Below, piece after piece: positions 7,559-7,954 of a stretch of DNA of 12,151 nt. The DNA is from Polaromonas sp. GTDB lineage: Bacteria > Pseudomonadota > Gammaproteobacteria > Burkholderiales > Burkholderiaceae_C. How positions within the stretch are numbered: position 1 is the stretch's first letter; the number at the start of each line of letters is the position of its first letter. The notes beneath the pieces are model-generated. The model did no database searches and was not told the origin of the DNA. It saw only the letters and a program-made list of their open reading frames with translations. A program made the position numbers and the translations under genes. Location: positions 1-12,151 of the forward strand of contig JAYSRE010000068.1 in NCBI GenBank assembly GCA_043721235.1, given 5' to 3'.

Positions 7559-7954
7559 ATGAAAAGCGGCAAGCAGCGTAGAGAGGAAATCAAAGCCAAG
7601 CGTTTAGTGCGTTTGGCCAAATGTGTTGAAGCGGGCAAATACAGCCCGCTGGATGCCATCGGCTTTGGTGCTGTAGCTGCTGACCACACACGACTCGGGC
7701 CACATAACAGCTGCGATGCGCTTCCTGATTTTTATATGAACTGCGCATTTGTCTGTAAAGACTGCGGTTCGCAAGAGCTATGGACCGCTAAGCAACAGAA
7801 GTGGTGGTATGAAATTGCCAAAGGGCCTTTTGGCAGCCGCGCCGTGCGGTGCAAACCGTGTCGCGTGATCGAGCGTGCCAGAGCAGACGAAGCCAGGCGC
7901 GTAAGCCTAGAGGGCATGCAGCGAAAATTAGCTTCACAGAAATTGAAAGCATAA
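7559..7954 (+). CDS. Small basic zinc-ribbon protein of unknown function (131 aa), inserted between rtcB and rtcA
   Basis: ATG at 7559 with a perfect AAGGAG 6 nt upstream. The ORF-track start at 7532 lies inside the rtcB 3' end. The product has a K/R-rich N-terminus (MKSGKQRREEIKAKRLVRLAK), then CAFVCKDCG …(27 aa)… RCKPCR, i.e. a CxxC-N27-CxxC zinc ribbon with a WWYE aromatic patch, and a basic C-terminal tail. Its stop is 2 nt before the rtcA ATG, so it is translationally coupled. Confidence 0.7.
   Translation: MKSGKQRREEIKAKRLVRLAKCVEAGKYSPLDAIGFGAVAADHTRLGPHNSCDALPDFYMNCAFVCKDCGSQELWTAKQQKWWYEIAKGPFGSRAVRCKPCRVIERARADEARRVSLEGMQRKLASQKLKA

Follow-up and report, generated by a model that had tools for sequence, protein, structure and literature searches.

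The window analysed here, a 12,151-nt stretch of Polaromonas sp. DNA (assembly GCA_043721235.1, contig JAYSRE010000068.1, positions 1 to 12,151), contains an RNA-repair operon in which a small zinc-finger gene lies between rtcB and rtcA. We refer to this gene by the working label ZnR. Its product matches the Pfam family PF13451 (zf_Tbcl), described as a 'probable treble clef domain' and formerly as a 'probable zinc-ribbon domain', which has no assigned function. We find that ZnR is a recurrent member of rtc operons and not a one-off insertion, and that the rtc operon is the sole conserved neighbourhood of the ZnR subfamily. Here a known domain family without an assigned function turns up as a recurrent, apparently undescribed component of the known rtc system. 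We further propose that ZnR is a basic treble-clef accessory of RtcR/σ54-controlled rtc repair that acts as a nucleic-acid-binding adaptor, a proposal to which we give an even chance as a whole, the accessory claim itself being the better supported.

The linkage was assessed in two samples. One genome per GTDB species was scanned, relatives of ZnR were found in 492 genomes and the best 80 loci were taken; a metagenome scan seeded with long forms of ZnR (described below) gave 574 loci, from which the best 80 were likewise taken. When the proteins of the window were used in tblastn searches, rtcB, usually together with rtcA and rtcR, was located within 6 kb of ZnR in 34 of the 80 genome loci. 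In the metagenome sample, rtcB or rtcA was nearby in 58 of 70 non-redundant loci. Once identical proteins had been removed and only well-flanked loci (3 kb or more on each side) retained, linkage to rtc was seen in 31 of 64 loci from genomes and 22 of 23 from metagenomes; both samples consist of top-scoring and not of random loci, so that these fractions are biased and indicative only. ZnR and rtcB were on the same strand in every case (88/88), ZnR coming after rtcB in 76 loci and before it in 12, and in most linked loci the two genes were directly adjacent, separated by 6–130 nt. These figures bear out a specific linkage to rtc. The preliminary description of this DNA had raised the prospect of a broadly distributed family with no such linkage. 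We looked for this pattern and did not find it in the ZnR subfamily; PF13451 at large probably does show it.

Gene maps of the genome loci showed that linked copies of ZnR lie in operons divergent from rtcR, and that the first gene of these operons, ahead of ZnR, is of two types, encoding either Ro (accompanied by the YrlA Y RNA) or a Band_7 protein (accompanied by a tRNA-like RNA). The order rtcB-ZnR-rtcA occurs in many Comamonadaceae, Rhizobacter and Variovorax, the order ZnR-rtcB-rtcA in Undibacterium, Accumulibacter and Hahella, and the order rtcB-rtcA-Band7-exonuclease-x-x-ZnR in Pleionea. Some operons include additional genes for RlaP, HEAT-like, MoxR-vWA or DUF5677/DUF6988 proteins. The hosts of linked copies include Burkholderiales, Accumulibacter, Hahella and Pleionea, and in a rough neighbour-joining tree these copies form four or more distinct clades, with unlinked copies branching in between. 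The rtc operon is the one conserved home of the gene, which occupies it in differing gene orders, with both first-gene types and across several host lineages; such a pattern commonly marks functional coupling.

The conserved neighbour of ZnR is rtcB, and rtcA is often apart. This modifies the preliminary description, in which rtcB was said to be followed directly by rtcA in characterised operons and the tight spacing to rtcA was taken to argue for stoichiometric co-expression of ZnR with RtcA. The first statement is correct for E. coli and Salmonella but not for Pseudomonas, in which the gene for RlaP (PF10127) is located between rtcB and rtcA (PMC12776372). The second describes an arrangement that is not conserved, because ZnR lies upstream of rtcB in 12 loci, and coupling to RtcA is not general, genes for a metallo-β-lactamase (MBL)-fold protein and for RlaP standing between ZnR and rtcA in many loci.

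Within the window, re-reading of the sequence confirmed exactly the coordinates of the open reading frame (ORF), the Shine-Dalgarno site and the intergenic distances that had been described. The rtcB stop codon (TAA, 7545–7547) is followed after 11 nt by the ZnR start codon (ATG, 7559), and the ZnR stop codon (TAA, 7952–7954) is separated by 2 nt (AA) from the rtcA start codon (ATG, 7957). The ATG at 7559 is favoured over an upstream GTG at 7532 because homologues share the same MKS... start. An indexed protein search returned 735 homologues at E ≤ 1e-3; the best 120 of these are mostly ~118–156 residues long and every one carries PF13451. An exhaustive hidden Markov model search of 1.84 billion cluster representatives gave 1229 matches at E ≤ 1e-3 and 552 at E ≤ 1e-10. 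Comparison with a 92%-identical copy in a Polaromonas metagenome-assembled genome (locus L001) gave 0.36 synonymous substitutions per site (dS) and 0.042 nonsynonymous substitutions per site (dN), hence a dN/dS of 0.116. The identical 131-residue protein has been called independently as a gene on three public contigs, in each of which the order is Band_7-RtcB-zf_Tbcl-RTC. ZnR is thus a genuine gene under purifying selection. Scans of the protein against NCBIfam, PADLOC and PHROGs gave no match, so that ZnR is neither a member of a named family nor a known defence component or phage protein, and it is not a mobile-element gene, given that phage collections contained no relatives and plasmid collections only two weak partial matches.

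Residues 64–107 of ZnR match PF13451 with 46.9 bits (E = 2.7e-12), above the gathering threshold of 24 bits. The product has a mass of 14.8 kDa and an isoelectric point (pI) of 9.7, and the pI lies between 9.5 and 10.6 throughout the family. An alignment of 27 diverse homologues revealed two conserved blocks, one at the N-terminus (M-K-S-x-K-Q-R-x-x-E-I-K-x-x-R) and one in the zinc core (F-x-C-x-D-C-G-x-x-E-x-W-T-A-x-Q-Q-K-W-W-Y-E-x-A-x-G-x-x-x-S-x-A-V-R-C-x-x-C-R). Cysteines 66, 69, 98 and 101 are invariant both in alignment A1 and in 81 of 81 genome-derived sequences, and this conserved four-cysteine site would bind zinc. K2, S3, E10, I11 and R15 are likewise invariant in alignment A1; the N-terminal helix to which they belong is conserved, peculiar to the ZnR subfamily and outside every Pfam model. 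The lysine- and arginine-rich N-terminus and basic C-terminal tail mentioned in the preliminary description are both present (9 of 25 and 8 of 29 residues, respectively, being lysine or arginine). Its CxxC-N27-CxxC motif is right as to the four conserved cysteines but not as to the spacer, which is 28 residues long.

A full-length AlphaFold2 model (mean predicted confidence, pLDDT, 80.8) contains a helix at 4–25, a hairpin at 62–65/72–75, a helix at 77–86 and a long helix at 99–130; C66 and C69 are located in the hairpin turn and the long helix starts at C98/C101. A domain-only model (pLDDT 84.4) has the same arrangement, and its structural matches are mostly treble clefs (rabphilin FYVE-like, CW, PHD, RING, CsfB, DksA and YacG). 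Because the second CxxC (98–101) begins a long α-helix in both models, and the Pfam class agrees, the predicted fold is that of a treble clef and not the classical zinc ribbon that had first been suggested. Searching PDB sequences with profiles of the full-length protein and of the domain produced either no match or trivial ones to repeated C2H2 knuckles. ZnR and the wider PF13451 family have in common, in this order, the CxxC motif, an aromatic-Thr pair and a Gln/aromatic helix, a Gly and RCxxCR. The subfamily of ZnR is tight and distinct, marked by a conserved N-terminal extension of 60 residues (MKSGKQRREEIKAKRL ... LPxFYxD), a helix rich in Trp (QQKWWYE) and a C-terminus that is either a basic helix or HEAT-like. 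The gene had been termed uncharacterised, which is accurate for its function but not for its classification, since PF13451 is a catalogued domain.

The exhaustive search also brought up many relatives of 200–320 residues, in which the same N-terminal 110 residues are followed by a helical-repeat domain in place of the basic C-terminal helix (fusion alignment A3). Matches of this domain to HEAT_2 are weak and sub-threshold. In metagenome loci with long forms the usual order is rtcR (divergent), Ro or Band7, rtcB, ZnR(HEAT-like), an MBL-fold gene, RlaP and rtcA, which suggests that RNA-end processing in these extended operons involves a larger module than rtcBA of E. coli. Such operons of rtcB, ZnR-HEAT-like, MBL, RlaP and rtcA were seen in soil and rhizosphere metagenomes (L143, 5995–9529; L085, L100, L127, L132, L135, L140, L156 and others), and the MBL-fold gene in them has a weak match to the tRNase Z N-terminal domain. 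Separate genes were observed just upstream of ZnR in Hydrogenophaga (L048, 4354–5709; 451 residues, with a sub-threshold HEAT_2 match) and in Pleionea (L015, 4515–5537; 340 residues, with no Pfam match), and the two proteins have the motif RLNDWVPQVR in common.

How might ZnR contribute to repair? We infer that ZnR binds zinc and RNA and has an effect on RtcB or RtcA. In the proposed mechanism, ZnR would bind damaged RNA, the ribosome or the tRNA-like or Y RNA encoded in the operon through its basic helices and the conserved aromatic/polar helix WTAKQQKWWYE. It would thereby keep substrates in place, or offer them, for RtcA and RtcB to heal and seal their ends, and in the longer relatives the HEAT-like extension may serve as an additional surface for protein docking. 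A nucleic-acid or ribosome partner is favoured because the pI is uniformly high, because basic helices are combined with invariant Trp, Tyr, Gln and Lys residues on a short helix, and because the same conserved surface persists in copies away from rtc. Several observations weigh against this proposal. Besides the biased composition of the samples already mentioned, about half of the copies in species genomes lie more than 6 kb from any rtc gene, and the 400 nt upstream of ZnR contained no σ54-type promoter throughout the 80 genome loci, which led us to abandon the idea of a separate RtcR-dependent promoter for unlinked copies. In addition, linked and unlinked copies have the same invariant core, so that the role of ZnR may be general and independent of RtcB. 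YacG, DksA and CsfB, moreover, are treble clefs that bind proteins and not nucleic acids.

The last point leads to the main rival explanation, which we hold to be possible but clearly less probable than the adaptor, namely that ZnR is a protein-binding modulator which docks on RtcB, RtcA or the CARF domain of RtcR with no RNA binding of its own, and which would tune ligase or cyclase activity in the manner of archease or provide operon feedback. Many relatives carry a HEAT-like extension, typically a protein-docking module, RtcA and RtcB form complexes with the CARF domain of RtcR (PMC9650030), and the position of ZnR directly beside rtcB would suit such a partner. On the other hand, unlinked copies keep an identical surface, which would require that the partner is encoded elsewhere or not needed, and the strong conserved positive charge is better suited to nucleic-acid binding.

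A general housekeeping or stress factor, such as a ribosome- or RNA-associated zinc protein that has been captured repeatedly for co-regulation and has no direct share in ligation or cyclisation chemistry, is less likely than the protein-binding modulator and in our view rather doubtful. It would account for the well-flanked genome copies that are isolated in unrelated genomic surroundings in many different phyla (33 of 64), for the sharing of the invariant core by linked and unlinked copies, and for the size of the wider PF13451 family, which is not known as rtc-specific. Apart from position 116, no residues of note separate rtc-linked from unlinked copies. Against this explanation, the rtc operon is the sole recurrent context and has been gained or kept in several lineages and gene orders, all but one of the 23 well-flanked metagenome loci are rtc-embedded, and the long forms co-occur with RNA-end-processing MBL-fold and RlaP genes. 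All-against-all clustering around the 46 genome loci without rtc identified no other conserved neighbour, the 86 proteins flanking unlinked copies matching 109 different Pfam families with at most three members each, and no tRNA genes were found near unlinked copies. Finally, that the ORF is spurious, or a mere intergenic spacer between rtcB and rtcA, is exceedingly improbable and is excluded by the conservation data: small size and the missing NCBIfam model speak for it and nothing further, against the low dN/dS, hundreds of full-length homologues with invariant cysteine and aromatic residues, a strong Shine-Dalgarno site, a Pfam score over threshold and independent gene calls.

The window as a whole contains a complete RtcR-type RNA-repair locus, with same-strand rtcB and rtcA, divergent rtcR and a σ54-type promoter (Table 1). 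This promoter has the form TGGCAC-N5-CTGCA and is the sole match in the rtcR-Band7 intergenic region, the pattern overall not being enriched in the window. ZnR is probably co-transcribed with rtcB and rtcA, given the gaps of 11 and 2 nt and the fact that related loci have no σ54-type promoter in the 400 nt preceding the gene.

Table 1. Positions of ZnR, its parts and the surrounding rtc operon in the window
Feature	Position	Strand	Evidence
ZnR gene, 131-residue basic PF13451 (zf_Tbcl) protein	7559..7954 (stop codon included)	+	ORF, Pfam, dN/dS, public gene calls
Shine-Dalgarno AAGGAG, 6-nt spacer to ATG 7559; shares last base of rtcB stop codon	7547..7552	+	Direct sequence reading
N-terminal Lys/Arg-rich helix, residues 1-25, MKSGKQRREEIKAKRL...	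7559..7633	+	Alignment, model, K+R 9/25
Predicted treble-clef zinc-binding core, residues 62-102, with invariant WTAKQQKWWYE helix	7742..7864	+	Pfam, invariant columns, model
First zinc knuckle C66-K-D-C69, turn of predicted β-hairpin	7754..7765	+	Invariant Cys, model
Second ligand pair C98-K-P-C101, N-terminus of C-terminal helix	7850..7861	+	Invariant Cys, model (helix 99-130)
Basic C-terminal helix, residues 103-131	7865..7951	+	K+R 8/29, model helix
rtcR, divergent σ54 activator of the operon	2801..4408	-	NCBIfam NF038308, 806.8 bits (cutoff 650); Pfam RtcR and Sigma54_activat
σ54-type promoter TGGCACGTTGCCTGCA, likely operon transcript start	4546..4561	+	Pattern search, 1 mismatch
tRNA-like RNA element, operon leader	4767..4833	+	Rfam tRNA model, 43.8 bits
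SPFH/Band_7 gene, first gene of the operon	5136..6275	+	PF01145, E 9e-29
rtcB, RNA 3'-phosphate ligase, directly upstream of ZnR	6312..7547	+	PF01139, E 8e-127
rtcA, RNA 3'-terminal phosphate cyclase, directly downstream of ZnR	7957..9042	+	PF01137 and PF05189; NCBIfam NF003246, 374 bits (cutoff 352)

The operon leader (4573–5135, ~560 nt) lies between the σ54-type promoter and the Band_7 gene and contains the tRNA-like element. ARAGORN called no tRNA gene at this element, and the YrlA model gave a weak match to it (18.1 bits); a leader of 528 nt folded better than shuffled controls (z = −3.15). A tRNA-like RNA was also present in other Band_7-type rtc operons (L005, L006, L009, L030 and L025), with YrlA in its place in Ro-type operons (L007 and L019). 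The element is probably the 'novel tRNA-like molecule' that Burroughs and Aravind (2016) reportedly assigned to SPFH/Band-7 modules. In two loci of the Oxalobacteraceae type, L034 (9956–10951, with five matches) and L062 (9155–9226), matches to the Rfam tRNA model were seen directly 3' of rtcA; they may be true tRNA genes or tRNA-like RNAs of the operon. Among genes inserted in ZnR-containing rtc operons, one locus has a MoxR-type AAA ATPase together with a DUF2201 metallopeptidase/vWA protein (L038, 6403–9295), and further insertions encode DUF6988/DUF5677 proteins or an RNase_T-family exonuclease (L035, 6896–7498; L038, 4588–5154; L015, 3858–4433). The flanks of the operon in the window (9862–12130, 9392–9850 and 1804–2799 on the reverse strand, 328–1740 on the forward strand) hold ordinary metabolism genes with no evident tie to the rtc locus: EutC, the ethanolamine ammonia-lyase light chain, and an upstream 453-residue ORF that is presumably the heavy chain, as well as a 4HBT thioesterase, a DUF4147/MOFRL (glycerate-kinase-like) protein and an NAD-dependent epimerase.

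Accessory proteins of rtc operons have been described before, including Ro with Y RNA in Salmonella (PMC7790460) and SPFH in P. aeruginosa (PMC13086221). In operons under RtcR control, the gene for RlaP is an accessory standing, like ZnR, between rtcB and rtcA (PMC12776372), and the two occur together in many loci; RlaP, however, is a Pol-β-fold enzyme, whereas ZnR is devoid of catalytic motifs. The closest described analogues are the accessories of the RFH(PrfH)-RtcB2 ribosome-repair systems, in which proteins with a zinc-ribbon domain and positively charged helices are encoded beside RtcB. Burroughs and Aravind (2019; PMC6514570) proposed for these predicted proteins contacts with rRNA or a function as charged tails, which offers a precedent for the adaptor proposal. 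These small zinc-finger accessories, with their highly basic helical regions, are comparable to ZnR in description, and they belong to a PrfH-linked RtcB system, whereas the present ZnR is linked to RtcR and RtcA. Archease, the model invoked in the preliminary description, is also small and genomically or functionally coupled to RtcB (in archaea and eukaryotes), although ZnR has no sequence or fold relationship to the archease family. YacG, the DksA zinc finger and CsfB/Gin, which are among the best structural matches, likewise have a four-Cys site whose second ligand pair is at the N-terminus of a helix. Our literature search retrieved no paper naming PF13451, zf-trcl or zf_Tbcl and none tying a treble-clef or zinc-ribbon protein to rtcBA; a prior mention in the survey of Burroughs and Aravind (2016) is possible.

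A more specific version of the accessory proposal, which we regard as tentative and put well below the general one, is that ZnR serves as a hitherto unrecognised specificity or activation subunit of bacterial RtcB/RtcA repair that recognises a particular damaged RNA, or the tRNA-like or Y RNA of the operon, and is needed for efficient healing and sealing. The 3' end of 16S rRNA, tRNA halves and tmRNA would be candidate targets. If this were the case, ZnR would correspond in function, within bacteria, to archease or to subunits of the metazoan tRNA ligase complex, and the HEAT-like fusions would mark a larger RtcB-MBL-RlaP-RtcA repair complex.

The bacterial Rtc system is still under debate as to its physiological substrates and cofactors, among which tRNA halves, 16S rRNA and tmRNA are candidates. 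Cultured carriers of ZnR exist in Variovorax, Polaromonas aquatica, Hydrogenophaga, Undibacterium and Hahella. The linkage of ZnR to rtc provides a first functional context for part of PF13451, a sizeable family, and makes ZnR a specific candidate for a missing cofactor of Rtc repair, one that would direct the ligase and the cyclase to their targets or bring both together in a complex.
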